Source: a virus
Taxonomy: Duplodnaviria > Caudoviricetes
IMG/VR virus record: IMGVR_UViG_3300020112_000420
Span: 22,459-86,458 of that record
DNA: 64,000 bases
Reading direction: 5' to 3' (one strand)
Part shown: positions 2,446 through 32,628 of the stretch, piece by piece
How positions within the stretch are numbered: position 1 is the first letter of the stretch
Layout of the letters: each line of letters opens with the position of its first letter
Notes under the pieces: generated by a model
What the model saw: the letters and a program-made list of their open reading frames with translations, nothing else
Databases searched by the model: none
What the model was told of the DNA's origin: nothing
Translations under genes and position numbers: made by a program

Positions 2446-2958
2446 ATGAAAAACAACATGATAATAACAGAAGGTAAACACATTCTCGATGTGACGTGTA
2501 GCAACCGTTCAATCTGGTTTGACAAGGAATGTCCTATAGCGTTGTATTGCGATAAGCGTAAATGCGTAGAAACGGTAGTGTTTGCAGGTGGAAAGAAAAA
2601 ACAAGATTGCGTTGTCAACCCCGATGTTGTGTGCGACTTCACAGACCTACCATTCTTCGACAATTCATTTGAACTCGTCGTCTTTGACCCTCCCCATGCT
2701 TTGAACATAAACGAGGATTCTTGGACGTGTAAGAGATATGGAACTTTGCTCAATGGGTGGGAAGAGGTGGTAAAAAGCGGTATCAATGAATGTATGCGCG
2801 TTCTGAAGCCATACGGAACTTTGATATTCAAATGGAGCGATGTTCACATTTCCACAGCCGACGTTATAAAGGCAATCGGAATTACGCCGTTGTTTGGGCA
2901 TAGAAGCGGTAAGAAAATGAACACACATTGGATGGTTTTTATGAAAGGAGATAAATAA
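2446..2958 (+). CDS. SAM-dependent (probably amino) DNA methyltransferase, small phage type
   Basis: ILDVTCSNRSIWFDK...CDFTDLPF..SFELVVFDPPH...HWMVFMK. Confidence 0.7.
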   Translation: MKNNMIITEGKHILDVTCSNRSIWFDKECPIALYCDKRKCVETVVFAGGKKKQDCVVNPDVVCDFTDLPFFDNSFELVVFDPPHALNINEDSWTCKRYGTLLNGWEEVVKSGINECMRVLKPYGTLIFKWSDVHISTADVIKAIGITPLFGHRSGKKMNTHWMVFMKGDK

Positions 2959-2959
2959 C

Positions 2960-4068
2960 ATGGTCATTAACTTCAGCACCAGACGACGGGATGTGGATAA
3001 TTCCGTATACTTCGGGTCGTGCATTATTCAGAATTGGCTGTTTGCCGCCATCAAAGAAGAGGCATGGAAAAAGCACATTAGCGAGAACACCTTGATACGG
3101 AAGATTCTTGCCGAGCATTTCAAGTCCAAGAAGCCGAACGGTTGCATTGCCGACCCCGTGGATGAACTCGACAAGCGTATGAGAACAAGTGACTAATGGT
3201 TTTGTATGCACGACGTGGAAAGTGCCATTTATCCAGTTGTTGAATTTGCAAGAAGCCATTTGTTGGTAAACCAATGGGATGCGGCAAAGGTTGTATCTAC
3301 TGCATATTTCAAACTCGTTGCATGTGGTGACGAAGCAGAACAGAATGAAGTTGCGAAAATCATCATGTCCGTTGATTGCAAGGTAAGCAAAAAACACCAT
3401 AACCTTGAATGTGGAATAAGGATAAATGAATGGGATGCACTTGATGCCATATTTGAAATACAAAAGATTTTTGGATATGGCTTTTTCTCAAAAAGGTTTA
3501 GAAGAAAACTGACGAAGATTGTTGAAAATTCAAACTTATTCAAGGCACGGACAACTCTTATTGAAGTTTTGAAAGCCGCATATTAGGTGTTTTGTATTTG
3601 ATTACGAAAGGAATTAAGCATGACAAACAATAAAAAGGTAATGGTTTGCGAAGCGGAAGATTCGCGCATGGTTGGGTTGAAGTTCGACGTTCCCGACCTC
3701 TTGGCGCAGTCCAGCGACTTCGCCGTGAAGAAGTTTATGAAGCGTTATATCGCGGAACGATTCGACATCGACATGTCTGGCGTTTCTCTTACCGTCACTT
3801 CCGAAGAATAACATTGACAATGAAGAGATTGAAAAATCTTGTGTATGCCCTTTTGTTTGGTATGGTAATCGGTATTGGGATTGACATAGCACATAGCGTA
3901 GAGGTTATTCCTATAAAGCATGACGAACTTTCAAAAGAGATTAATGACCTTAAAAGCACCATTAAAGAACAAGAGCGTTTGATTCGCGCACAGCATGACA
4001 CGATTGAGAACATGCAGAGGCAGATAATTAAGTACAAGCGGCTGTCTGAAAAGAAATCGTCTACTTGA
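2960..4068 (+). CDS. Four hypothetical proteins (2960-3196; 3206-3586; 3620-3811; 3820-4068, the last with an N-terminal TM helix and coiled coil)
   Basis: Packed + strand ORFs; hydrophobic LVYALLFGMVIGIGIDIA in the last. Confidence 0.55.
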
Positions 4069-4081
4069 CACGGTATAGAAA

Positions 4082-4774
4082 ATGCGAGAGATATACAATA
4101 CCGACTGTTTTTCGTGCATTGAAAAGACTGTTTCCGAAGTCAGCAACCCAATCATTGTGACTGACCCACCCTTTAACGTTGGATATGGGTACGATGAATA
4201 TGTCGATAGGTTGCCAGAAGAAGAATACCTTGAAAAGTTGGATTATATTTTTAGTCTTTGCCCATCTGTCGTGATACACTATCCCGAACATTTGTATAAA
4301 TTGTCGGTAAAGATGGGAAAGATACCGATGCGCGTCATATCTTGGGTTTACAATTCAAATACGCCACGTCAGCACCGCGACATTGCCTATTTCGGTATCG
4401 AGCCTGATTTTCACGGGTTGGGTGAATATAAAAATCCAACAGACAAGAGAATTGCCGAGCGTATATCAGAAGGGAAAAAGCCGATTGGCTATGATTGGGT
4501 GTATGCAGACCAAGTGAAGAATGTCAGCAAGGGTGTAAATTCTCATCCGTGTCAAATGCCTCTCGCTGTCATGTTGTATGTGGTGAGGACTTTGCCACAC
4601 GACTGCACAATCATTGACCCATTTATGGGTAGCGGAACAACATGTTTGGCGGCAAAAAGGAACGGCATGGAGTATGTCGGAATTGAGATAAGCAAACGGT
4701 ACTTCAAAATTGCCTACAACAGATTGAATAACGATTCTCCATTGTTTGATACCATTGAAGGTAATGAAAAATGA
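4082..4774 (+). CDS. DNA N6-adenine/N4-cytosine methyltransferase, beta class
   Basis: TDPPF followed by HPCQMP and DPFMGSGTT. Confidence 0.9.
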   Translation: MREIYNTDCFSCIEKTVSEVSNPIIVTDPPFNVGYGYDEYVDRLPEEEYLEKLDYIFSLCPSVVIHYPEHLYKLSVKMGKIPMRVISWVYNSNTPRQHRDIAYFGIEPDFHGLGEYKNPTDKRIAERISEGKKPIGYDWVYADQVKNVSKGVNSHPCQMPLAVMLYVVRTLPHDCTIIDPFMGSGTTCLAAKRNGMEYVGIEISKRYFKIAYNRLNNDSPLFDTIEGNEK

Positions 4775-5259
4775 AAATAAAAAAGCAAATCAAGAACAAA
4801 CCAAAAACGCTGTCACCTTGGGAATGGACGCTCATTGTTGCCGCGTGGCGATACTACGAGAACCGCATGACGATTGCATCTTCCATGTTCCCGCATGAAA
4901 TCATCGAGCATTTCTTCTGTGGCGCGTATGACGAAGATTCATGCAACCGCATTGCCCGTCAGTTTTCCTATATTGACCACCACAATGGCGAAAGCGATTG
5001 GAGTGGTACGAAGTACCTTATGGATATGGATAAAACGCCGTGGTGCAAGTTCTACGCCTTTATGAAGGCGTGGATAGACGGATTCGCAACCGTGACGGTC
5101 AGCGACGGGAAAAAGACCGAGGTTGTCGAGGCGTTTTACTGCGAGTTCACGAAGCGATGGCATCCGAAGCAGTTGTATATGGCGGGTGGACTGCACGAAA
5201 GCGCATACATACCACCGGAATACATTAAGAAGATTGTCGGGGGAAATCGAAATGTTTGA
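4771..5259 (+). CDS. Hypothetical protein
   Basis: 162-aa ORF overlapping both neighbours. Confidence 0.6.
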   Translation: MKIKKQIKNKPKTLSPWEWTLIVAAWRYYENRMTIASSMFPHEIIEHFFCGAYDEDSCNRIARQFSYIDHHNGESDWSGTKYLMDMDKTPWCKFYAFMKAWIDGFATVTVSDGKKTEVVEAFYCEFTKRWHPKQLYMAGGLHESAYIPPEYIKKIVGGNRNV

Positions 5260-6010
5260 ATACGACACGATATGTCAAGGGGATTGTCTGTCAGGCATGA
5301 AGGCAATGCCCGATGCTTGCGTTGACACGATTGTGACTTCTCCGCCATACAATAAGAAAGGGCAATCCAAGAAGAAGGGAAATCAGATTTGGGGAGGGTT
5401 TCGGATAGATTACGACTCGTATCAAGATAGTCTTGACAATGACGAATATGATGATTGGATGCGTCAATTGCTTTGTGAGTTCAACAGGATTCTCAAGCCG
5501 AATGGTTCTGTATTCTTTAATCATAAGGTTATACTTGAAAATTGCACGGCTCATTTCCCTTCTTTCGTATTGGATTGTGGAATACATTTATATCAGTTAG
5601 TAGTATGGAATAGGATGTGCAGTTGCAACATTAGAAATGATACATTGTTTCCGACATACGAACTTGTGTTTTGGCTTTCAAAAGGTAAGCCGAATGTTTA
5701 CAAGGAGCAGGCGACATACAAGAATGACATTTGGAACATACCACCCGAAAAGAATAGCGAACATCCAGCACCTTTCCCTTATAAATTGGCTGAAAACTGT
5801 ATTCTTCTGACAAATCCTAAAAACAGCGGAAATTTGATATTCGACCCTTTTATGGGTAGTGGAACAACGGCTGTTGCGGCTAAAAATACTGGAAATCATT
5901 TTTTAGGTTTTGAATTGTCTGAAGATTATCGAAGAATGGCAATGAAACGAATTGCTAATGTAAAGTCATTCAAAAATGGGATTGTTCAGAACGACCTTTT
6001 TGGAGATTGA
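5252..6010 (+). CDS. DNA N4-cytosine/N6-adenine methyltransferase, beta class
   Basis: TSPPY, HPAPFP, DPFMGSGTT; C-terminal QNDLF. Confidence 0.9.
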   Translation: MFEYDTICQGDCLSGMKAMPDACVDTIVTSPPYNKKGQSKKKGNQIWGGFRIDYDSYQDSLDNDEYDDWMRQLLCEFNRILKPNGSVFFNHKVILENCTAHFPSFVLDCGIHLYQLVVWNRMCSCNIRNDTLFPTYELVFWLSKGKPNVYKEQATYKNDIWNIPPEKNSEHPAPFPYKLAENCILLTNPKNSGNLIFDPFMGSGTTAVAAKNTGNHFLGFELSEDYRRMAMKRIANVKSFKNGIVQNDLFGD

Positions 6011-7062: not shown

Positions 7063-8190
7063 ATGGAAGACAATATCACGGAATTGGTAAGGGAGATTGG
7101 TCGATTTTCATCTGTTGGAAACGCTGTCCGTGTAATGGCAACGGACATGCGTGATAGGTTGGGTCTAGAACACGACAAATTGGGTCGATTTGCCAAGAAG
7201 GACGGGAGTTCCTCCGAGACGGGTGTTGAGTTCGCTCTGTCGCTTGTTGACAAAAAGAAACTTGAGTCGGTTCGCGCCGTCGGAAACTATACGACGGCAG
7301 ATGGAAAGAAGCACGACACGCGCATTAACAACAATACGGGTAAGCCGATTTCAAAGGCGTTGAACGACTGTATTGACGCGCTTATGTGCGGCGTAGCGGT
7401 CACGGCGGCGGAAATAGAGCAAACGCCCGAATGGAAGTTGGCGAGAGAGCAGTTGCGCCAGCACCGAGCGACGAATTGGAAGAAGAACGGATTTGTCTAT
7501 ACGCATAACATCGACACGAAGGAGCGCGGAGAACTCCGTAGCAAAGTCGAGAGTGACGCGCTTGCCGAAGTCATTACGCGGGAGCAGAATCCAGACGCAT
7601 TCGACTATGCGGACAAGACTGGGGCTGAACTGAAGCCATGGAAGGTGAAGCGCGGTCATGTCATTGACGTTATCACGGGACTTCCCGCCGCTGGAAAGTC
7701 AACGACGTTTGCCAACAAACTGTCGGTCGAGAACGAGGCGCGTCTGATTGATTCTGACGAGTTCAAGAAGCGTATGCCCGAATACAACCGAGGTCTCGGC
7801 GCGGATATGGTTCACGAGGAGTCGTCCCGCATTGCCAAGCGTGTATTTCAGAAGGCGGTCGAGCGTGGCGAGAACATTACCTATCCCGTCATTGGTTTCA
7901 AGGCGGACAAGTTGCGCGAGATGTTCAAGTATCTGCGCGACAACGGCTATACGATTCGCCTCCATTTGAACGAGATGGACGCGAACAAGGCGAAGGGGCG
8001 TATGCTTCTGCGGTTCGCGGAACGTGGTCGTTTTCTTCCCTTGTCGCTGTTCCGCAAGTACGGCAACAAGCCGACGGACGCTTACAACGCCGTCAAGGGC
8101 GAGGTGGACTTCTATGAGAAGTACCGTAGCGAGACGGGGATTGGCGAGAAGCCGAAACTCATTGAAAAGGGCGGCAAGGAATCCAAGTAA
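7063..8190 (+). CDS. Zeta-toxin-like P-loop kinase with an N-terminal leader
   Basis: GLPAAGKST, LIDSDEFKK, VHEESS; leader VREIGR...VMATD...EHDKLGRFAKK. Confidence 0.75.
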   Translation: MEDNITELVREIGRFSSVGNAVRVMATDMRDRLGLEHDKLGRFAKKDGSSSETGVEFALSLVDKKKLESVRAVGNYTTADGKKHDTRINNNTGKPISKALNDCIDALMCGVAVTAAEIEQTPEWKLAREQLRQHRATNWKKNGFVYTHNIDTKERGELRSKVESDALAEVITREQNPDAFDYADKTGAELKPWKVKRGHVIDVITGLPAAGKSTTFANKLSVENEARLIDSDEFKKRMPEYNRGLGADMVHEESSRIAKRVFQKAVERGENITYPVIGFKADKLREMFKYLRDNGYTIRLHLNEMDANKAKGRMLLRFAERGRFLPLSLFRKYGNKPTDAYNAVKGEVDFYEKYRSETGIGEKPKLIEKGGKESK

Positions 8191-12836: not shown

Positions 12837-13226
12837 ATGGCACAAGCAACATTCAACGGGGTCACGGGTGAGATAATCAACATGACCTTGAAATACCATT
12901 GGTTCAACCGCATTCTGTCGGGAAAGAAGCATATCGAGTACCGCGAAGCCAAGGACTATTGGCACAGCCGACTTATCGGACACGACTACAAGTTCATTCG
13001 GTTCAGCAAGGGCTATACAAGCACGTCGTTCGTCATCGAGTGCAAGGGCATCAAGGCGATGCTGATTGACAATCCGAACGTCGGTTCAGAACCAGAAGAG
13101 GACGAGAATTACGAGAAGGACTTTACCGAAGGTACGATTGCGCTGGATTCCGACGAGTTCGACAAGGACATCGTGGCGGAGTATCAGATTAAACTCGGCA
13201 AAATCGTCTCGCGCCACTTGTGCTGA
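12837..13226 (+). CDS. ASCH/PUA-like domain protein
   Basis: MTLKYHWFNRILSGKKHIEYRE...YW..RL. Confidence 0.75.
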   Translation: MAQATFNGVTGEIINMTLKYHWFNRILSGKKHIEYREAKDYWHSRLIGHDYKFIRFSKGYTSTSFVIECKGIKAMLIDNPNVGSEPEEDENYEKDFTEGTIALDSDEFDKDIVAEYQIKLGKIVSRHLC

Positions 13227-26262: not shown

Positions 26263-26936
26263 ATGGAAAGAACTTATCCGACCACCTACTTGCTGATGAA
26301 AAGCGGCCCGTGTGCCTACGCCTGCAAACATGACGGCGACTGCGACAAATGCAAAGAATACGGCGACATCCGATCTTGCCCGTGGAACGTCTACGTCACG
26401 AAACGCTATTGCCGCTTGTGCCGTGAGCGCATGTTTTCAGTAGAGCAACTAACAAAGAAGGTTTCCGAGGTTTCCGAATGAACGACATTGAAACGCTAAT
26501 GGGTGGCATGAACATCGGAGGCGATGCGGCGCACATGTCGCCACGGCAGATTCTAGACATGCGATTCGGCATTGCGCAGAAAATCGCACAACGGGCCGCC
26601 CAACAGCAAAAACTGATTGCCACCCGTGGTCTCGACAAAGCCTTGCTTCAATCGGCTCACCGTAAACACTTGTTTCCGGTTCGCTCTATCCCCGCGCCCG
26701 CACACGCGACGCTCGGTAGCATACCAAATGAAGAAAAACGTTATCAAGAAAGATTAACAATCATCAATGCCATTCGGCAGAGAATGGGCGCAATCCCCAT
26801 GCCAAAAAAAGTGCGCGAAGAACGCATAAAAAAGGGCTTGCCAGTTCCAGACCCAAATGTACCCTATGTTATCGTCGAAGCACCCGATAACTCGCAAGAA
26901 AACAAAGAACAACAACAATTCCAATCATTTTCGTGA
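26263..26936 (+). CDS. Two hypothetical proteins (26263-26481, Cys-rich; 26478-26936)
   Basis: Coupled ORFs. Confidence 0.5.
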
Positions 26937-27035
26937 GTTCGTTAAATAGGTTGGACATAGCCGTGGCGTGACCCGTGTATAGATAGCGCACACGCACGCG
27001 CACGAATGGCATTATAAACATAAGGAGAAAACAGT

Positions 27036-27908
27036 ATGGCGAAAAGTTTACAAACGCGGTTCGGGAAGATTAAAAAACTGCACAATAATCCTCGGAAAAT
27101 CAGCAAGGTGCAAATGCAGAAGTTGGTAGACAGTCTGTACGAGGACAAGGACTTCATGCCGTTCGGCGGCATTGTGATAGACGAGAACAACGAGATATTG
27201 AGCGGGAACCAGCGGTACACGGCGTTGCAGACCATCCACGAAGAATTGCAGGGACAAGACGACATCGAGGATGTGGATTGGCAGTCGATACGGGACGGCG
27301 TGATACCCGACAAGTGGGTATTGCAGATGACGCGACCGTCGGAGTTGAGCGAAGCGGAGTGGGAAGCGAAGAAGAAGCGGTATGTCATCAAGATGAACTC
27401 TCCCGAAGGAATGAGCGGCGAGTTCGACTACGAGATATTGCAGGCGGAGTTCGGCATGGAAATCCTTGGGGAGTCGGGCATTGACTTCGCGAACTTGACG
27501 GACGACGTGCAGAAGAACGACGGGGAAGAGAAGACGGAGGAGATAGAGGGAAGTCCCGTCGGTGAGAACAACGAGCGCATAGCATCGTTCAAGGATTTGC
27601 GAAATTCGTTCAAGAATCGCGCATGGGACATGGCGGAAGCGGCGCACTATGTCTGTTTCGTGTTTCAGAACACGGAGCAGAAGCATGATTTTCTTGAGAA
27701 GGCGAAAATCGGAAGCCGCTATGGGCTGTTTGCCAACGGCATTGACTTGGCGAAGGCGATGGGCATTGAACTTGTGGAAGCGAAGGGAGTCCGTGCGGCG
27801 GTTGAACTATCGCCCGTCAAGGACTTGAAGGCGATGACGCTGAATCCCGAAGCGGACGAAGACGACAAAGAAGACGACAATGAAGATGGCGAAGGCGAAG
27901 AATCGTGA
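27036..27908 (+). CDS. ParB/sulfiredoxin-like N-terminal domain protein
   Basis: HNNPRKIS...GIVIDENNEILSGNQRYTAL. Confidence 0.75.
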   Translation: MAKSLQTRFGKIKKLHNNPRKISKVQMQKLVDSLYEDKDFMPFGGIVIDENNEILSGNQRYTALQTIHEELQGQDDIEDVDWQSIRDGVIPDKWVLQMTRPSELSEAEWEAKKKRYVIKMNSPEGMSGEFDYEILQAEFGMEILGESGIDFANLTDDVQKNDGEEKTEEIEGSPVGENNERIASFKDLRNSFKNRAWDMAEAAHYVCFVFQNTEQKHDFLEKAKIGSRYGLFANGIDLAKAMGIELVEAKGVRAAVELSPVKDLKAMTLNPEADEDDKEDDNEDGEGEES

Positions 27909-27914
27909 TTGACT

Positions 27915-27930
27915 TTTACCGAATGGCTAT
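27915..27930 (+). promoter_or_regulatory. Putative late promoter (copy 2)
   Basis: TTTAC-CGAA-TGGCTAT. Confidence 0.7.
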
Positions 27931-27985
27931 AAGTGGACTTTGATAAGTCCATTATTCCAATAAAATAAAAAGGAGATACAAGAAA

Positions 27986-28219
27986 ATGGCTACGAAGAAG
28001 AAAGCGGCGGGAATGCCTGGGCGCGTCAAGTCCGCAAGTGGTGTCAAGGTCGCGAAGGGTAGCGGCTTTACGGCGTTCGCTCGGACGCGGAAGGTCGGCA
28101 AAGGCGGCGGTCGTACTGCCTATGGCAAGATGTCGGTCGTTCGCGGCGGCGGCAAGGTCGCGGTGAGCGGCAAGGGTACTCACGCCTACAAGAACGGTTC
28201 GCACGAGCCGAGCAAGTGA
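27986..28219 (+). CDS. Small K/G-rich basic peptide A (77 aa)
   Basis: AAGGAG RBS; MATKK...GTHAYKNGSHEPSK. Confidence 0.7.
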   Translation: MATKKKAAGMPGRVKSASGVKVAKGSGFTAFARTRKVGKGGGRTAYGKMSVVRGGGKVAVSGKGTHAYKNGSHEPSK

Positions 28220-28239
28220 TTTCAACAGGAGGTGTCAGA

Positions 28240-28407
28240 ATGGCTACGAAAAAGAATGGCAAGGGCAAGGCGAAGGCGACGAGGACTGTTCCCAGGAACA
28301 TTAACGACACTTGGGGGATGCTGAAGCGCGGCGCGAACGCCCATGTGACCACGAAAACGAAGGGCGGACATACCTACAAGGGTACGTCGCACGAGCCGAC
28401 CAAGTAA
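28240..28407 (+). CDS. Small basic peptide B (55 aa), paralogue of A
   Basis: GGAGG RBS; MATKK...GGHTYKGTSHEPTK. Confidence 0.7.
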   Translation: MATKKNGKGKAKATRTVPRNINDTWGMLKRGANAHVTTKTKGGHTYKGTSHEPTK

Positions 28408-28410
28408 GGT

Positions 28411-29241
28411 ATGGTTTTCGACCTTCCTTTCAACACGCCCGAAACCGACGCGCTCTGCAAGGAGATTGCCAAACGGTCGAAGGGCGTGTGTCTTTTAGGG
28501 TTCAGCGGAGGCAAGGATGCCGTCTGCGCGTGGCTGAACCTTTCGCGCTATTTCAAGCGCATCGTCCCTTTCCATTGCGCCACGATACCGAAACTCCCCG
28601 TGCGGGAGGAGGCGTTGCGGTACTATGAGCATGTGTTCGACACGCATATCTACCGCATGGCGGAAAAGGACATTTTCACGATGATGTCCCGCATGATTTA
28701 CCAACTCTACGGCGACGAGGACTTCATCGACTCGCTCGGATTCTTCGACTACGACAAGTGCGACATAGCCGACTTTCTGCGCTACAAGTTGAACCTTCCG
28801 AAAGCGTGGTGCGCGTTCGGCATAAACGCCTGCGATTCGCTTGAGCGTCGCTTTCTATGCAGTTCGTGCGGGGGTATGCACGAAGAGGGCATGTCGTTTT
28901 ACCCGACGTGGAACTGGCCGAGGGCTGAAATCCTCAACACCATCCGCGTCAATGAAATCAAACTGTCGGATGAATACAACCACTTCTGCGGTTCTATCGA
29001 CACCGCACCGACGTGGCACATGATTAACAAGTTGAAGAAATACTATCCGACGGAGTATGCTATTTTGAAGGACTACCTACCGCTGTGCGAGGCGGAACTT
29101 GCGCGTCAGGACTTTCGCCGCGAATGGCTGAAGGTGGACGAACGGGGACGCAAGCGCGACTCGGACGAAGAAGCGGAAAAGGAGGAACGTTCCAACGGGA
29201 AGGACGGAGCAAATGAAACCAGCACAAGGGAAGAAGGATGA
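28411..29241 (+). CDS. PAPS-reductase-like / PP-loop ATP pyrophosphatase
   Basis: LLGFSGGKDA; FYPTWNWPRAEI. Confidence 0.75.
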   Translation: MVFDLPFNTPETDALCKEIAKRSKGVCLLGFSGGKDAVCAWLNLSRYFKRIVPFHCATIPKLPVREEALRYYEHVFDTHIYRMAEKDIFTMMSRMIYQLYGDEDFIDSLGFFDYDKCDIADFLRYKLNLPKAWCAFGINACDSLERRFLCSSCGGMHEEGMSFYPTWNWPRAEILNTIRVNEIKLSDEYNHFCGSIDTAPTWHMINKLKKYYPTEYAILKDYLPLCEAELARQDFRREWLKVDERGRKRDSDEEAEKEERSNGKDGANETSTREEG

Positions 29242-29767
29242 CAAGCCGAAAGGCACGGCACCGGATGCCGCGCCCATGCACGAGAGCAACGGGAAGAAGG
29301 CGAACGGTAGCGTGTCGCACTTCCGTTTCAACCGCAAACTCGGCAACGACGACATTGAGTTGATTCTGACGGGGCTGAAACGCTACCGCCCCCTCGTCAA
29401 CATCGCCAACGAACTCGACTGTTCCTACGGCGCGTTGCTCAAATTCATCAAGGACACCCCCGTTCTCGCGGAAATGAAGTACCGTTCGGCGGAAGGGCGC
29501 ATCGACATCGCGGAGTCCGCGCTGATGAACTCCATTGCCGAGGGCAACCTCAACGCGATATTCTTCTTCCTTGACCGCATGGCGCGTAGCCGTGGCTACG
29601 GTCAGCATCATGAAGTCGAAGCGGCGGTCAAGGAAAGTGCGCCGCGCATTGTCATTGGCACGATTGGCAAGGAGCGCATCGAAGCGGCGAAGAAACTTGT
29701 GGAAGAAGCGACGAAGGCGGCGAAGGCTTGTATGCCAGACGACGAAAACGGCGGTGGCGAACAATGA
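29213..29767 (+). CDS. terS: Terminase small subunit (probable)
   Basis: N-terminal HTH (NIANELDCSY), DIAESALM..I..GNLNAIFFFL...RGY; lies upstream of TerL. Confidence 0.65.
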   Translation: MKPAQGKKDDKPKGTAPDAAPMHESNGKKANGSVSHFRFNRKLGNDDIELILTGLKRYRPLVNIANELDCSYGALLKFIKDTPVLAEMKYRSAEGRIDIAESALMNSIAEGNLNAIFFFLDRMARSRGYGQHHEVEAAVKESAPRIVIGTIGKERIEAAKKLVEEATKAAKACMPDDENGGGEQ

Positions 29768-30228
29768 GAAAGCCAAGGTTGCAGATTATCCGTGGACTGC
29801 CAGGAAGCGGCAAGTCAACCTACGCGCACAAGCATTGGCCGAACCTTCTAAAGTTGGAGTTCGACTACTACTGTATGCGCGGAGGCGTGTACGAGTGGGG
29901 CGTGAAGCGCAACGAAGAAGGTCAGCGTTGGCTTGAGGTGACGATTTGCTCCATGTTGTTCCAACAGATTGATTTCGTCGTGTGCGGCGTGTTCGCGGGA
30001 AACGCCGAGCGTTTGGAGTACCTCGTCAAGTTGGCGGAGGCGTTCGGCTACGACGTGTGGATAAAGACGCTGACGGCGAACTTCGGCAACGTCCACGGTT
30101 GCCGTCCCGAAGACCTTGAAGACATGAGAATCGGGTTCAAGCGGTATGACGAATGGCTGGCGCACAAGGATAACGTAAACATTGGCGACATGCCGACGGA
30201 GTATGCCGTTGCGCCATTGGTGGACTGA
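29764..30228 (+). CDS. AAA_33-type P-loop kinase (polynucleotide-kinase-like)
   Basis: LQIIRGLPGSGKSTYA. Confidence 0.75.
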   Translation: MRKPRLQIIRGLPGSGKSTYAHKHWPNLLKLEFDYYCMRGGVYEWGVKRNEEGQRWLEVTICSMLFQQIDFVVCGVFAGNAERLEYLVKLAEAFGYDVWIKTLTANFGNVHGCRPEDLEDMRIGFKRYDEWLAHKDNVNIGDMPTEYAVAPLVD

Positions 30229-30262: not shown

Positions 30263-30787
30263 GTGAAGTTCATGCCTGAAAGCGGCTTCAAATCAAACGA
30301 TGTCGTGTATACGCCGCCTCGTTTGGCGCGTCTGTTCGTACAGCACTTCAACCCGCAAGGAAAGGGTCTCGACCCGTCCCGTGGTGGTGGCGCGTTCTAC
30401 AACGAGTTCCAAGGCGAAAAGGACTGGTGCGAGATAGCCGAGGGGAGATATTTCTTCGACTACAAGGAAAAAGTGGACTACATAATGACCAACCCGCCGT
30501 GGTCGCTCATGCGCAAGTTCTTGATTCACAGTTATGAGATTGCCGACCATATCTATTTCCTTGTGACGCTGGGGCATTGCTTCACGAGGGCGCGGTTGAA
30601 CGACATGGAGAACGCGGGTTTCGGAATGGTGGAGTTGTGCCGTTGCAACACGCCGAAGGACGGCAAGTGGCCGACGACGGGGCTTCAACTCGGCATGGTG
30701 CATATCGCACGGGGCTATACGGGCAACATCGCCTTGACGCGGCTCGACGAAAGCGACGGCAAGGTGCAGGGCGTTCTCGCAATCTGA
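30263..30787 (+). CDS. DNA adenine methyltransferase (gamma-like motif order)
   Basis: VVYTP, LDPSRGGGAF, then IMTNPPW. Confidence 0.8.
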   Translation: MKFMPESGFKSNDVVYTPPRLARLFVQHFNPQGKGLDPSRGGGAFYNEFQGEKDWCEIAEGRYFFDYKEKVDYIMTNPPWSLMRKFLIHSYEIADHIYFLVTLGHCFTRARLNDMENAGFGMVELCRCNTPKDGKWPTTGLQLGMVHIARGYTGNIALTRLDESDGKVQGVLAI

Positions 30788-30801: not shown

Positions 30802-32628
30802 ATGGTAAACTTATCCACGGGTCGTGACTTCGACGAAGCGGACGAAGAGGAAAGCGGTAATGCCGACATTACCGAACACGCCTTTTTCGCCCCCGCGTTC
30901 TATGAAGCGTGGGACGATTGGATAACGGGTACTTACACCACGCCCGACGGAGTGACGCACACGTTGCGCGAGATGATTCTTGCGGGCGGGCGAGGTTGCG
31001 TGGACGGTGACACGCTTGTAGACACGCCTATGGGCAAGGTTCGCATCCGCGACTTCAAAGGCGGCAAAGTGCTGTGCTTTGACGGCGGGCGCATGACAGT
31101 TGGCGAGGCGAAGCGTCCGACAATGGGTACGGAAGAAGACCTTTATGCCGTGACGGTCGAGGACGGTCGAACGATTGTCTGCACCGACCAGCACAAGTTC
31201 CTTACGGGCGGCGGCAAGTGGAAGCAAATGTGCCAACTCGCCCTTGGAGAGCCGCTTGTCATGCTCGGAAAATGCGGCTACGCGGAGAGTGTCAGCGTTG
31301 CGTCCATACGTTTCGTCAAACGCGACTACTACTATGACCTCGATGTCGTCGGGACGCACAACTACTTCGCCAATGGATTCCTCAACCACAATAGCACAAA
31401 GTCATCGTTTGCGGCGGCGGCTATCGTGCTGGCGTTGGAGCGCGATTGGCAAGACGCGGAAGACCGCAAGTGCGGGCGAAACGGCATGGGCATCGGGCCG
31501 AACCACGACCTTCCCGACAAGAAGTGGTATCGCCATCTGACGAACGCCATTGTCTATCGAAAGGTTGCCGCCACGCTTGCCGATTCCGTCTACAACCAAT
31601 TTGCGCAGACGATGGGCGACTACATGGGCGAAGCGATAATGAACCATTGGAAGTTCAGAAAATCGCCGCTCTCGATTGTCAACGAGGAGTCGGGTCAGGT
31701 CATTATGTTCCGTGGCTTGGACGACCCGCTGAAGTCGAAGTCCATCAAGCCGCCGAAGGGGTACTTCAGATACCTATGGTTGGAAGAATGGGCGGAGTTC
31801 GACGGCATGGAAGAAGTGCGTTCCGTCCGTCAGTCCATTCTTCGCGGCGGTAAGAAGATGCAGTCGATTTACTCGTACAACCCGCCCGAAACGTCGTCGA
31901 ACTGGGTCAACGAGGAAGCGGAGCGCGTCGTCGAAGGGCGCAAACTCTACAAGTCGGACTACCTATCCGTGCCAAAGGAGTGGCTTGGGGAGGACTTCTT
32001 CATCGAAGCGGAGAACCTCAAAAAGCAGAACTACCGCGCCTACCGCCACGAGTATTTGGGAGAAGTCACGGGTAATGGTGGAACGATATTCCCGAACCTC
32101 GTTGAGCGCGAGATTAGCGATGAAGAAATCAAACACTACGACATTATTAGGTATGGATTGGACTTTGGTTTTGCCATTGACCCTGCGGCGGTTGCGTTCC
32201 TTTACTATGACGTGACGAGAAGGCGCGTGGTGTGCTTTAACGAAATCTATGAAAGGGGATTGACAAACCAAGAACTTGCAGAGAAGGTGCTGAAGAAGAT
32301 TGTCAACCTTGAGTTCGTCCATTGTGATAGTGCTGAACCGAAGTCGATAGCCGAACTCATATCGTGTGGCATCAACGCGCTTGCCGTCCGAAAAGGCCCT
32401 GACAGTATTCGTGCGGGCATCCACTTTTTGCAAAGTATGAACTCGATTGAGTGCGACATGCGCAGAACGCCAAACTTTTACAATGAGTTCAAGAAGTATG
32501 AGTACGAGAAGGACAAGAGTGGAAATTTCGTGTCACGCTATCCCGACGGGAACGGCGTTGCGAACCATCTCATCGACGCCTGCCGCTATGGATTAGAGGA
32601 TGATATGACGCACGGTGGACTGTTCTGA
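30802..32628 (+). CDS. terL: Terminase large subunit (PBSX-like), interrupted by an intein
   Basis: Walker A GGRG|STKSS, FRGLDDPLKSKS, WLEEWAE, YSYNPP, GLDFGFAIDP, HLIDACRY. Confidence 0.92.
   Translation: MVNLSTGRDFDEADEEESGNADITEHAFFAPAFYEAWDDWITGTYTTPDGVTHTLREMILAGGRGCVDGDTLVDTPMGKVRIRDFKGGKVLCFDGGRMTVGEAKRPTMGTEEDLYAVTVEDGRTIVCTDQHKFLTGGGKWKQMCQLALGEPLVMLGKCGYAESVSVASIRFVKRDYYYDLDVVGTHNYFANGFLNHNSTKSSFAAAAIVLALERDWQDAEDRKCGRNGMGIGPNHDLPDKKWYRHLTNAIVYRKVAATLADSVYNQFAQTMGDYMGEAIMNHWKFRKSPLSIVNEESGQVIMFRGLDDPLKSKSIKPPKGYFRYLWLEEWAEFDGMEEVRSVRQSILRGGKKMQSIYSYNPPETSSNWVNEEAERVVEGRKLYKSDYLSVPKEWLGEDFFIEAENLKKQNYRAYRHEYLGEVTGNGGTIFPNLVEREISDEEIKHYDIIRYGLDFGFAIDPAAVAFLYYDVTRRRVVCFNEIYERGLTNQELAEKVLKKIVNLEFVHCDSAEPKSIAELISCGINALAVRKGPDSIRAGIHFLQSMNSIECDMRRTPNFYNEFKKYEYEKDKSGNFVSRYPDGNGVANHLIDACRYGLEDDMTHGGLF
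30997..31392 (+). mobile_element. Mini-intein (132 aa, no homing endonuclease) in the TerL Walker A
   Basis: Begins CVDGDTLV; block B CTDQHKF; block F YDLDV; ends NYFANGFLNHN followed by Ser+1. Confidence 0.93.

Follow-up and report, generated by a model that had tools for sequence, protein, structure and literature searches.

A candidate three-part module of a ParB-like protein, twin small basic proteins and a PP-loop enzyme at the head of a phage DNA-packaging operon

Phage genes annotated 'PAPS reductase' are routinely filed as auxiliary genes of sulfur metabolism, and the named pair of a PAPS reductase and a ParB-like protein is IbrA/IbrB of E. coli. In an uncultured 86-kb phage, of which a stretch of 64,000 nucleotides (the window) was analysed, such a gene is preceded by a ParB-like gene and by two small genes, designated pep1 and pep2, and the question raised by this locus is what the two small basic proteins do beside the enzyme. 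According to the original prediction, they are substrates or carriers in a RiPP-like or DNA-modifying pathway.

The genes lie on the + strand in the order ParB-like, pep1, pep2, enzyme, terS-like and, further downstream, terL, the twin small genes heading the DNA-packaging operon, and all ORFs listed in the original prediction were recovered where it had placed them. The ParB-like gene (27036..27908, +; 290 aa, pI 4.6) is followed by a copy of the phage-specific motif TTKAC-N4-YGGCTAT (27915..27930, +), located 56 nt 5′ of pep1. This motif occurs in 10 copies in the window versus 0.02 expected by chance, every copy on the + strand, and also 5′ of the small-protein gene in a relative (L014); it probably acts as the late promoter that had been proposed upstream of the peptides. 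A scan of positions 26800-29900 for sigma-70 promoters and terminators gave nothing exceeding shuffled sequences. pep1 (27986..28219, +; 77 aa, pI 11.6) and pep2 (28240..28407, +; 55 aa, pI 10.9, ATG at 28240) are each preceded by a good ribosome-binding site (GGAG, 10 nt upstream of the ATG, and AGGAGG, 7 nt upstream of the ATG, respectively). The enzyme gene (28411..29241, +; 276 aa, pI 5.4) starts 3 nt after the stop codon of pep2, a spacing that suggests coupling, and is overlapped over 29 nt, as predicted, by the terS-like gene (29213..29767, +). The latter was assigned by synteny (its match to phrog_4102 terS was weak, E 0.07), and its homologue lies immediately 5′ of terL in two relatives (L001 and L003). 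The end of the packaging block is formed by terL with a mini-intein (30802..32628, +; Pfam Terminase_3 1.6e-23, Terminase_3C 1.2e-17, Intein_splicing 2.4e-10). The Pfam and PHROG matches of all neighbours were phage replication or packaging genes, and blastn of the region against phage records returned one 77-nt chance-like match only.

The two small proteins are paralogues, as had been noticed from the letters. Both start with M-A-T-K-K and end in Lys within a common tail, Y-K-x-x-S-H-E-P-(S/T)-K; their last 20 residues are 55% identical (BLASTP E 1e-5 in a single comparison), and the N-terminus and tail have been kept while the middle has diverged. The 86-kb genome, read in all six frames, contains the S-H-E-P tail nowhere else, a back-translated search of viral contigs for Y-K-x-x-S-H-E-P-(S/T)-K-stop gave 0 matches, and a word-index search with pep1 returned pep1 only. 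Neither protein was matched in Pfam, NCBIfam, PHROGs or PADLOC. pep1 is predicted to be disordered (Atlas model pLDDT 0.31), and its Atlas feature and structure matches were all under useful scores.

The enzyme was placed, as predicted, among the PP-loop ATP pyrophosphatases of the PAPS reductase family (phrog_2302, E 8e-9). Its S-G-G-K-D loop occupies residues 32-36, and S32, G34, K35, D36, G137, R146, Y164 and P165 are invariant in 21 homologues, with D142 and S143 nearly so; the PP-loop is thus intact. The AlphaFold2 model (pLDDT 85.7) gave fold Z-scores of 14.3 to the PAPS domain of human FAD synthase, 13.1 to CysD and 11-12 to APS/PAPS reductases. The window enzyme itself falls under Pfam detection, and PF01507 is reached by 3 of the 21 family members; on the loop and the modelled Rossmann fold, membership in the PAPS reductase family (PF01507) nevertheless holds. 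The C-terminal tail is acidic. No fused or longer form of the enzyme was found in the search, which is weak evidence. Scans of viral and metagenome contigs with single proteins yielded no close relatives; scans with alignments A1 and A4 were successful, and one homologous enzyme (P0003) is 82% identical to that of the window.

No Cys is invariant anywhere in the 21-sequence alignment of the enzyme. The C-S-S-C at residues 150-153 occurs in this phage and its nearest relative only, and the C-terminal catalytic Cys of CysH-type PAPS reductases (E-C-G-L-H-type) is absent. Because the family has no invariant cysteine, an Fe-S cluster would be impossible, as would a persulfide relay, and the sulfur or phosphorothioate chemistry that had been envisaged was not supported. 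DNA phosphorothioation of the Dnd/Ssp type, in which the enzyme would correspond to DndC/SspD and the ParB-like protein to DndB, would fit the superfamilies concerned, since DndB and DndC are likewise a ParB-superfamily protein and an ATP pyrophosphatase of the PP-loop PAPS-reductase fold with presumed DNA as substrate, and a vibriophage PAPS-domain protein counters Dnd. It is nonetheless very improbable: in addition to the missing cysteines, a cysteine desulfurase (PF00266) is absent from the 94%-complete genome, no PADLOC model of known or candidate defence systems matches at E 0.1, and DndD/E-like genes were not found among the neighbours by Pfam and PHROG; a DndC/SspD enzyme would be expected to have DndD/E or SspB/C as partners. 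Dnd systems, for their part, lack a small basic partner.

The same enzyme assignment bears on whether the twin peptides could be RiPP precursors matured by the enzyme into a modified peptide. Tandem small ORFs with a common terminal motif directly 5′ of an ATP-dependent enzyme have that appearance, but the enzyme belongs to the PAPS reductase family rather than to the lasso-cyclase/asparagine-synthetase type (Z 14.3 versus 7.2-8.2 to asparagine synthetase, beta-lactam synthetase and carbapenam synthetase), no RiPP-class maturase such as YcaO is present, and the operon is devoid of a recognition element, leader protease or exporter by Pfam and PHROG. The peptides are disordered polycations of 55-77 aa (≤250 aa in relatives), and the phage-borne genes are linked to terS/terL and accompanied by a ParB-like gene. 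We give this pathway almost no credence, and the RiPP logic of the original prediction was not supported.

The upstream gene product was confirmed as ParB-like by matches to PHROG 620/940 (E 1e-10) and by a below-cut-off Pfam match to GmrSD_N (E 2e-4). Its N-terminal domain was modelled by AlphaFold2 with pLDDT 80-93, the best folds being pNOB8 ParB-N (Z 8.0), KorB (Z 7.4) and sulfiredoxin (Z 6.4), and G-G-N-Q-R-Y, containing the G-x-x-R nucleotide-binding motif, is conserved, placing the protein in the ParB/Srx superfamily. ParB_N was matched by Pfam in 2 of 12 relatives. The protein does not qualify as a partition ParB, which would have a central HTH DNA-binding domain, a C-terminal dimerisation domain and a parA/parS partner: it was matched by neither HTH_ParB nor ParB_C in Pfam, and its virus-specific C-terminal domain, which ends in an acidic tail, matched unnamed viral clusters only.

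The survey of neighbourhoods for a conserved upstream peptide, which had been suggested as a check, was positive across very distant phages. At about 100 related loci the enzyme gene usually has, immediately beside it, a gene for a disordered small protein of pI 10-12. This small ORF touches or overlaps the start of the enzyme gene both in the clade of the window and in phages with an enzyme of only about 27% identity. Among upstream ORFs, 29 of 91 were basic and ended in Gly, versus 41 of 862 among background small ORFs (Fisher p 7e-14). In the distant phages the protein ends in R-R-K-S-x-G-G-x-G-G, and this Gly-tailed family comprises 42 cluster representatives of 40-93 aa, 0 of them fused, in 40 of which the last position of the profile is the C-terminal residue of the protein itself. 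As in the window, the three genes share a strand, at or beside terS/terL, in L001, L003, L009, L049, L051, L060 and L073, and L060, with a small gene on each side of the enzyme gene, is a second twin case. The small gene is separated from the enzyme gene by another gene in L008 and L013, and none was found at the thresholds used in L017, L024 and L030. Where the ParB gene shifts from upstream to downstream, the small gene stays by the enzyme gene. An ASCH gene accompanies the module in L009, L022, L023 and L073; none adjoins the window module, and the window holds a sub-threshold ASCH match only (12882-12956).

Membership of pep1 and pep2 in this small-protein family is weak in statistics and strong in position and composition. 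Against the profile HMM of the Gly-tailed proteins, pep1 ranked first of 1694 ORFs of the genome, at an E-value (0.62) that is not significant alone. Residues 10-56 of pep1 aligned with an entire Gly-tailed protein (BLASTP E 0.001, composition correction off), its R-V-x-x-x-S-G-V was aligned by hhalign with the motif of the family (E 0.08), and its internal R-G-G-G aligned with the position at which the Gly-tailed family ends. R-N-I-N-D-T-W-G of pep2 was set weakly on the family motif I-x-R-x-T-G (hhalign E 0.16), and an M-A-T-K-K-N-G-K-G-K-A-K-like start together with D-T-W-G is common to pep2 and the upstream proteins of L002, L001 and L003. Both proteins thus have the predicted disorder, the pI above 10, the M-A-(T/K/R) start and, weakly, the R-(I/V)-x-x-x-(T/S)-G motif of the family, and neither ends in its Gly. 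The twins are best read as tandem paralogues of the small-protein part of a module.

Could the small proteins be nothing other than abundant proteins that condense DNA or lie inside the virion, as protamine- or histone-like counter-ions of the packaged DNA, placed first in the late operon for dosage, with the enzyme and ParB-like protein acting on DNA without them? Their extreme pI, their richness in Gly, Lys and Arg and their predicted disorder agree with this, as do the strong Shine-Dalgarno sites and first place behind the late motif, the variable copy number (twin here, flanking pair in L060) and rapid evolution in which composition is conserved better than sequence. It would leave unexplained why the small gene is glued to the enzyme gene despite movement of the ParB gene, why the termini are so sharply conserved (40 of 42 end in G-G-x-G-G), and why the paralogues have conserved the N-terminus and tail only; we regard it as unlikely.

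The tails were further considered on the enzyme tree. Tails ending in Lys or Arg, present in this window and at 11 related loci, group together as a single clade within glycine-tailed lineages; one change accounts for them in 88% of bootstrap trees, and the window lies on the earliest branch of the clade. Tail class is inherited along with enzyme lineage, which is no proof of co-evolution, because adjacent genes are inherited together. The clade appears to have exchanged a near-universal Gly-Gly end, the ends in the window having probably been replaced or extended. Since the clade swapped Gly-Gly and both paralogues in the window kept the new tail, the tail seems to matter and terminal glycine to be inessential; that terminal glycine is not obligatory for the small protein is new here. 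Enzyme positions that vary with tail class were phylogenetically confounded ones only, at which the window is often unlike other members with Lys/Arg tails. The expectation that the C-terminal motif is a conserved core was not borne out, as the tail is unique to the window and those of relatives differ, being mostly Gly-Gly; the tail motif of the window recurs internally or near the N-terminus in L014, L003 and the 116-aa protein of L001, which makes a strictly terminal tail chemistry doubtful. What stood of the original interpretation is that the peptides are genuine paralogues with a functional tie to the enzyme gene next to them.

A Gly-Gly end recalls sulfur carriers and ubiquitin-like modifiers, and in TtuA the Gly-Gly tail of TtuB is received in the active site. 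The window enzyme shares the PP-loop fold with TtuA and Ncs6 (Foldseek E 2e-6, Z 10-12), and in the wider phage family the small partner, as with TtuB and Urm1, is encoded alongside and ends in Gly-Gly. The partner in the window, however, is a disordered, Lys-ended polycation and not a beta-grasp protein of the ThiS, MoaD, TtuB or Urm1 kind, the enzyme lacks Fe-S cysteines, and no E1-like activating enzyme is present. Tagging in the manner of ubiquitin or Pup, in which the small protein would be adenylated by the enzyme at its C-terminal carboxylate and ligated to lysines of phage or host proteins, draws on the terminal Gly-Gly that is near-universal in the distant subfamily, always last and never fused, on TtuA being among the best Foldseek matches, and on carboxylate adenylation by the PP-loop enzymes NAD synthetase, asparagine synthetase and LarE, all fold matches here. 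The Lys/Arg ends of the window and its 11 related loci and the disorder of the small proteins speak against it, there would be no obvious job for a ParB-like DNA-clamp fold, and a de-conjugating protease was not found in the module. We consider such tagging quite unlikely.

Annotated pairs of 'PAPS reductase' and 'ParB-like nuclease' precede the terminase in known phages, for example Lactobacillus phage LR1 and Pasteurella phage Pm86, whose enzymes are of the same family (tblastn 27-28% identity, E 4e-27 and 8e-15) and occupy the same place before terS/terL. In LR1 a 141-aa protein of pI 11.2, starting M-A-R-Q-R and ending in Gly, is encoded between the enzyme and the ParB-like 'nuclease', and in Pm86 the ParB-like protein is represented by its C-terminal domain only; in neither record is the small protein annotated as part of a system. 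The window differs from both in having the ParB gene first, two small genes, and tails ending in Lys rather than Gly.

The best reading, to be taken as a proposal from sequence comparison, is that the window holds one instance of a widespread three-part phage module heading the late operon, composed of a ParB/Srx-fold protein, one or more small disordered basic proteins with a conserved tail, and a cysteine-less PP-loop enzyme. Within it, we tentatively favour pep1 and pep2 as working partners, either substrate or adaptor, of a PP-loop/ParB pair whose target would be phage DNA at the time of packaging; the most plausible setting remains the one originally proposed, a role directed at DNA and coupled to packaging. 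Counted for the best reading were the deep adjacency, the defined family, the twins elsewhere, the tail class following the enzyme tree, the kept ends of the paralogues, the pairing of polycationic small proteins with an acidic enzyme and ParB-like protein, both acid-tailed, the invariant PP-loop, the late motif here and in L014, and two precedents for a DNA setting. In one, phage ParB-like proteins activate a DNA base-modifying enzyme, the T-dioxygenase, and a ParB-like protein of NTPase fold is encoded beside, and required by, a post-replicative DNA modifier; that modifier is an Fe(II)/2OG dioxygenase and not a PP-loop enzyme, and a small basic protein was not described (PMC13229309). In the other, a vibriophage fusion of a PAPS domain with a Dam methylase has anti-Dnd activity, demonstrating escape from a DNA-directed defence by a phage-borne PAPS-reductase domain; unlike the window enzyme it is methyltransferase-fused, has neither ParB nor a small basic protein linked to it and lies outside the packaging operon (10.1101/2021.05.05.442762). 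Counted against the reading were the weak statistical case for relating pep1 and pep2 to the Gly-tailed family, the loci with separated genes or without a small gene, the internal tail motifs in relatives, and the lack of an enzyme residue clearly tracking tail class beyond phylogeny. Prediction of a complex of the enzyme (alignment A1), pep2 and ATP gave a score of 0.02, which counts neither for nor against binding.

For such a partnership we infer the binding, chemistry, DNA target and timing as follows. The motif at 27915 would drive pep1, pep2, the enzyme gene and the terminase genes late in infection, and the polycationic bodies of the small proteins would bind phage DNA, on which the ParB-like protein may load as an NTP-dependent clamp or activator. 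The PP-loop enzyme would convert ATP to AMP and PPi, adenylating an oxygen, and would recognise the conserved tail of the small protein, which would either carry the group activated or serve as an adaptor bringing the acidic enzyme to DNA. The product would be a mark or decoration on DNA during packaging, most likely protective against host nucleases. A more specific version, in which an oxygen of the small-protein tail is activated by the enzyme at the expense of ATP and the protein becomes covalently attached to phage DNA (or protein) during packaging with the help of the ParB-like clamp, is unlikely; if true, it would be a new phage-borne conjugation chemistry tolerating a non-glycine, Lys-terminated tail, which would then serve for recognition and not merely as a Gly-Gly handle.

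The evidence points to the phage 'PAPS reductase' of this kind being a cysteine-less ATP-activating enzyme accompanied by a ParB-like protein and a dedicated small polycationic protein, encoded directly before the terminase in very different phages. The clade with non-glycine tails adds a constraint on any mechanism. The module is present in Lactobacillus phage LR1, whose host is L. reuteri ATCC PTA 6475, so that a cultured phage-host pair is available for testing it. If the three parts act together on DNA or virion proteins, they would represent a step of DNA packaging or anti-defence in phages that has not yet been described.

The window covers bases 22459-86458 of a single 86,458-bp IMG/VR virus record (94% complete by CheckV), and in it the genes for a ParB-like protein, the twin peptides pep1 and pep2, the PP-loop enzyme and a terS-like protein follow one another on the + strand at window positions 27036-29767. 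The ParB-like gene (27036-27908, 290 aa, acidic product) is separated by a 77-nt spacer from pep1 (77 aa, pI 11.6), which is followed by pep2 (55 aa, pI 10.9); the enzyme gene (28411-29241, 276 aa) begins 3 nt past the pep2 stop codon and overlaps by 29 nt the terS-like gene, which ends at 29767. The ATG of pep1 is preceded by GGAG at 10 nt and that of pep2 by AGGAGG at 7 nt. The motif TTKAC-N4-YGGCTAT occurs in 10 copies (7025, 27915, 33092, 37231, 38632, 41074, 49095, 51736, 53455 and 62998; 0.02 expected by chance), all on the + strand, and one copy lies in the spacer, so that a candidate late promoter would have pep1 and pep2 as its first genes, with the ParB-like gene lying upstream of the promoter. 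The same motif was found in the related locus L014, 5′ of the small-protein gene (294-309) and 3′ of terL (4278-4293), and in the related locus L003, ahead of the portal gene (7382-7397).

On the 3′ side of the terS-like gene, two ORFs (29728-30228 and 30263-30787) intervene before terL, namely a P-loop kinase-like ORF (phrog_2071, E 2e-12; weak AAA_33/zeta-toxin matches) and a short N6-adenine methyltransferase-like ORF (phrog_799, E 7e-26), which may be a methylase that has been truncated or split, because its match covers only part of the phrog_799 family. In terL (30802-32628), the Walker A loop is interrupted (G-G-R-G / C ... H-N / S-T-K-S) by a mini-intein of ~130 aa at about 30997-31392 (Pfam Intein_splicing, E 2.4e-10); intein matches were also obtained in terL of the relatives L001 and L003.

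The original prediction of twin peptides with a common start and tail beside a PP-loop enzyme was confirmed: both peptides begin with M-A-T-K-K, their C-terminal 20 residues are 55% identical (E 1e-5), and the enzyme carries S-G-G-K-D (residues 32-36) and C-S-S-C (150-153). The N-terminus and tail are the only parts conserved between these paralogues, and no further occurrence of the tail was found elsewhere in the genome.

About 100 loci encoding enzyme relatives were surveyed, and the conserved small protein expected at homologous loci was found both in the window clade and in distant phages. In the window clade (enzymes 36-54% identical), the gene 5′ of the enzyme always encodes a protein of pI 9.5-12 and 53 to about 250 aa, frequently starting with M-A-(T/S/K/R)-K. 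In distant phages (enzyme about 27% identical), a protein of 40-90 aa and pI about 12, ending R-R-K-S-x-G-G-x-G-G, abuts or overlaps the enzyme start. Of the upstream ORFs, 29 of 91 were basic and Gly-ended, vs 41 of 862 small ORFs in the background (p 7e-14). A family profile built from 17 Gly-tailed proteins retrieved 42 cluster representatives among 1.84 billion, every one of 40-93 aa and none fused, and in 40 of them the final profile position was the protein's own C-terminal residue.

Gene order in the module is variable (ParB before or after, ASCH often present, HNH or membrane genes inserted at times), yet the small gene keeps its place beside the enzyme. In L060 there are two copies, and the enzyme lies between them. 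In the cultured Lactobacillus phage LR1, which is inducible as a prophage from L. reuteri ATCC PTA 6475, the full module was found at 2923-5359: enzyme, a 141-aa Gly-ended protein of pI 11.2 labelled only hypothetical in the record, ParB-like 'nuclease', terS and terL. At L008 (861-1400) and L013 (195-1094), another gene separates the small basic gene from the enzyme gene, one encoding a membrane-like protein of 179 aa that weakly matches Peptidase_A8 and the other a 299-aa repeat protein resembling a homing-endonuclease-type insertion. The high-GC, actinobacterial-type loci L031 and L038 have no small basic gene 5′ of the enzyme; about 400 nt downstream (4082-4177 and 4078-4173, respectively) they share a conserved Arg-rich ORF of 31 aa, ending S-R-G-R-S-S-G-(T/S), that could be an equivalent partner or a GC artefact. 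ASCH genes lie directly 5′ of the small protein in L009, L022, L023 and L073; in the window, a sub-threshold ASCH-like match (12882-12956, E 0.0013, 15.8 bits) falls a long way from the module, in an ORF of 148 aa.

The N-terminal features of the Gly-tailed family are present in both pep1 and pep2, and R-V-K-S-A-S-G-V of pep1 (E 0.08) and R-N-I-N-D-T-W-G of pep2 (E 0.16) were aligned by hhalign to the family motif I-x-R-x-T-G. Against the family HMM, pep1 ranked first of 1694 genome ORFs, with an E of 0.62 that is not significant by itself. Residues 10-56 of pep1 match an entire Gly-tailed protein, and since the alignment stops at an internal R-G-G-G, pep1 looks like such a protein extended by 21 residues bearing the window-specific motif. 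Fragments of this motif lie inside proteins of relatives: H-T-F-x-K (L003), A-Y-T-F-K-G-N (L014) and, close to the N-terminus of a 116-aa protein, Y-A-K-A-T-G-R-E-P-K (L001). Other tails in the window clade are (Y/F)-G-(P/Q)-D-G-x-x-(K/R) or V-G-E-(R/A)-K-(V/I)-K.

In a maximum-likelihood phylogeny of 36 enzymes, Lys- or Arg-ended tails represent a single change in 88% of bootstrap trees, and their clade, of which the window is the earliest branch, sits within Gly-tailed lineages. This non-glycine variant and its apparent single origin are new here. Because adjacent genes are inherited together, the pattern indicates co-inheritance of tail class and enzyme, not proven co-evolution; no enzyme residues tracking tail class beyond phylogeny were found. 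The Lys/Arg-ended clade and the internal motif copies argue against a chemistry requiring a terminal glycine.

The enzyme matched PHROG 2302 ('PAPS reductase', E 8e-9) and nothing in Pfam or NCBIfam; 3 of 21 aligned homologues reached PF01507. S32, G34, K35 and D36 of the PP-loop, and also G137, R146, Y164 and P165, are invariant in the alignment and D142 and S143 nearly so; no Cys is invariant, and C-S-S-C is confined to the window phage and its 81%-identical relative. The AF2 model (pLDDT 85.7) matched the PAPS domain of human FAD synthase (Z 14.3), CysD (Z 13.1) and TilS, LarE and APS/PAPS reductases (Z 11-12), and asparagine-synthetase-type enzymes at Z 7-8 only. Judged from alignment and fold, the enzyme is a PAPS-reductase-family ATP pyrophosphatase that is unable to perform the sulfur chemistry for which CysH and DndC use cysteines; in line with this, the genome lacks a cysteine desulfurase and gave no match to PADLOC defence-system models. 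Two of the readings originally proposed were not supported, DNA phosphorothioation because invariant cysteines and the partners are missing, and a RiPP pathway because of enzyme class, accessory genes, nature of the peptides and genomic context.

The N-terminal 125 residues of the ParB-like protein were confidently predicted to adopt a ParB/Srx fold (pNOB8 ParB-N, Z 8.0; KorB, Z 7.4; sulfiredoxin, Z 6.4) with a conserved G-G-N-Q-R-Y motif; neither the HTH nor the dimerisation domain of ParB was found. The conserved C-terminal domain (F-V-F-Q-x-x-E-Q-K-x-x-F-L ...), which matches unnamed viral clusters only, stands alone directly 3′ of the enzyme gene in L011 (1575-2048) and Pasteurella phage Pm86 (3659-4087), as proteins of about 140-157 aa that have a basic stretch at the N-terminus and lack the ParB/Srx domain. 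The enzyme's constant partner may be this unnamed C-terminal domain and not the ParB fold.

Membership of the small protein in this cassette was not described in the literature searched. The main rival reading takes the small proteins to be plain DNA-condensing proteins; strict adjacency over deep divergence, sharply conserved termini and paralogues that keep only N-terminus and tail argue instead for a working partner of the enzyme, not a passenger. The enzyme and ParB-like protein are acidic, whereas the small proteins are polycations, which fits a role as adaptor or substrate. The ParB-like fold and the place ahead of terS and terL point to DNA at packaging time as the setting of the module, as do two experimental precedents: a DNA base-modifying dioxygenase that ParB-like proteins of phages activate (PMC13229309), and a PAPS-domain protein with which a phage escapes Dnd (10.1101/2021.05.05.442762).
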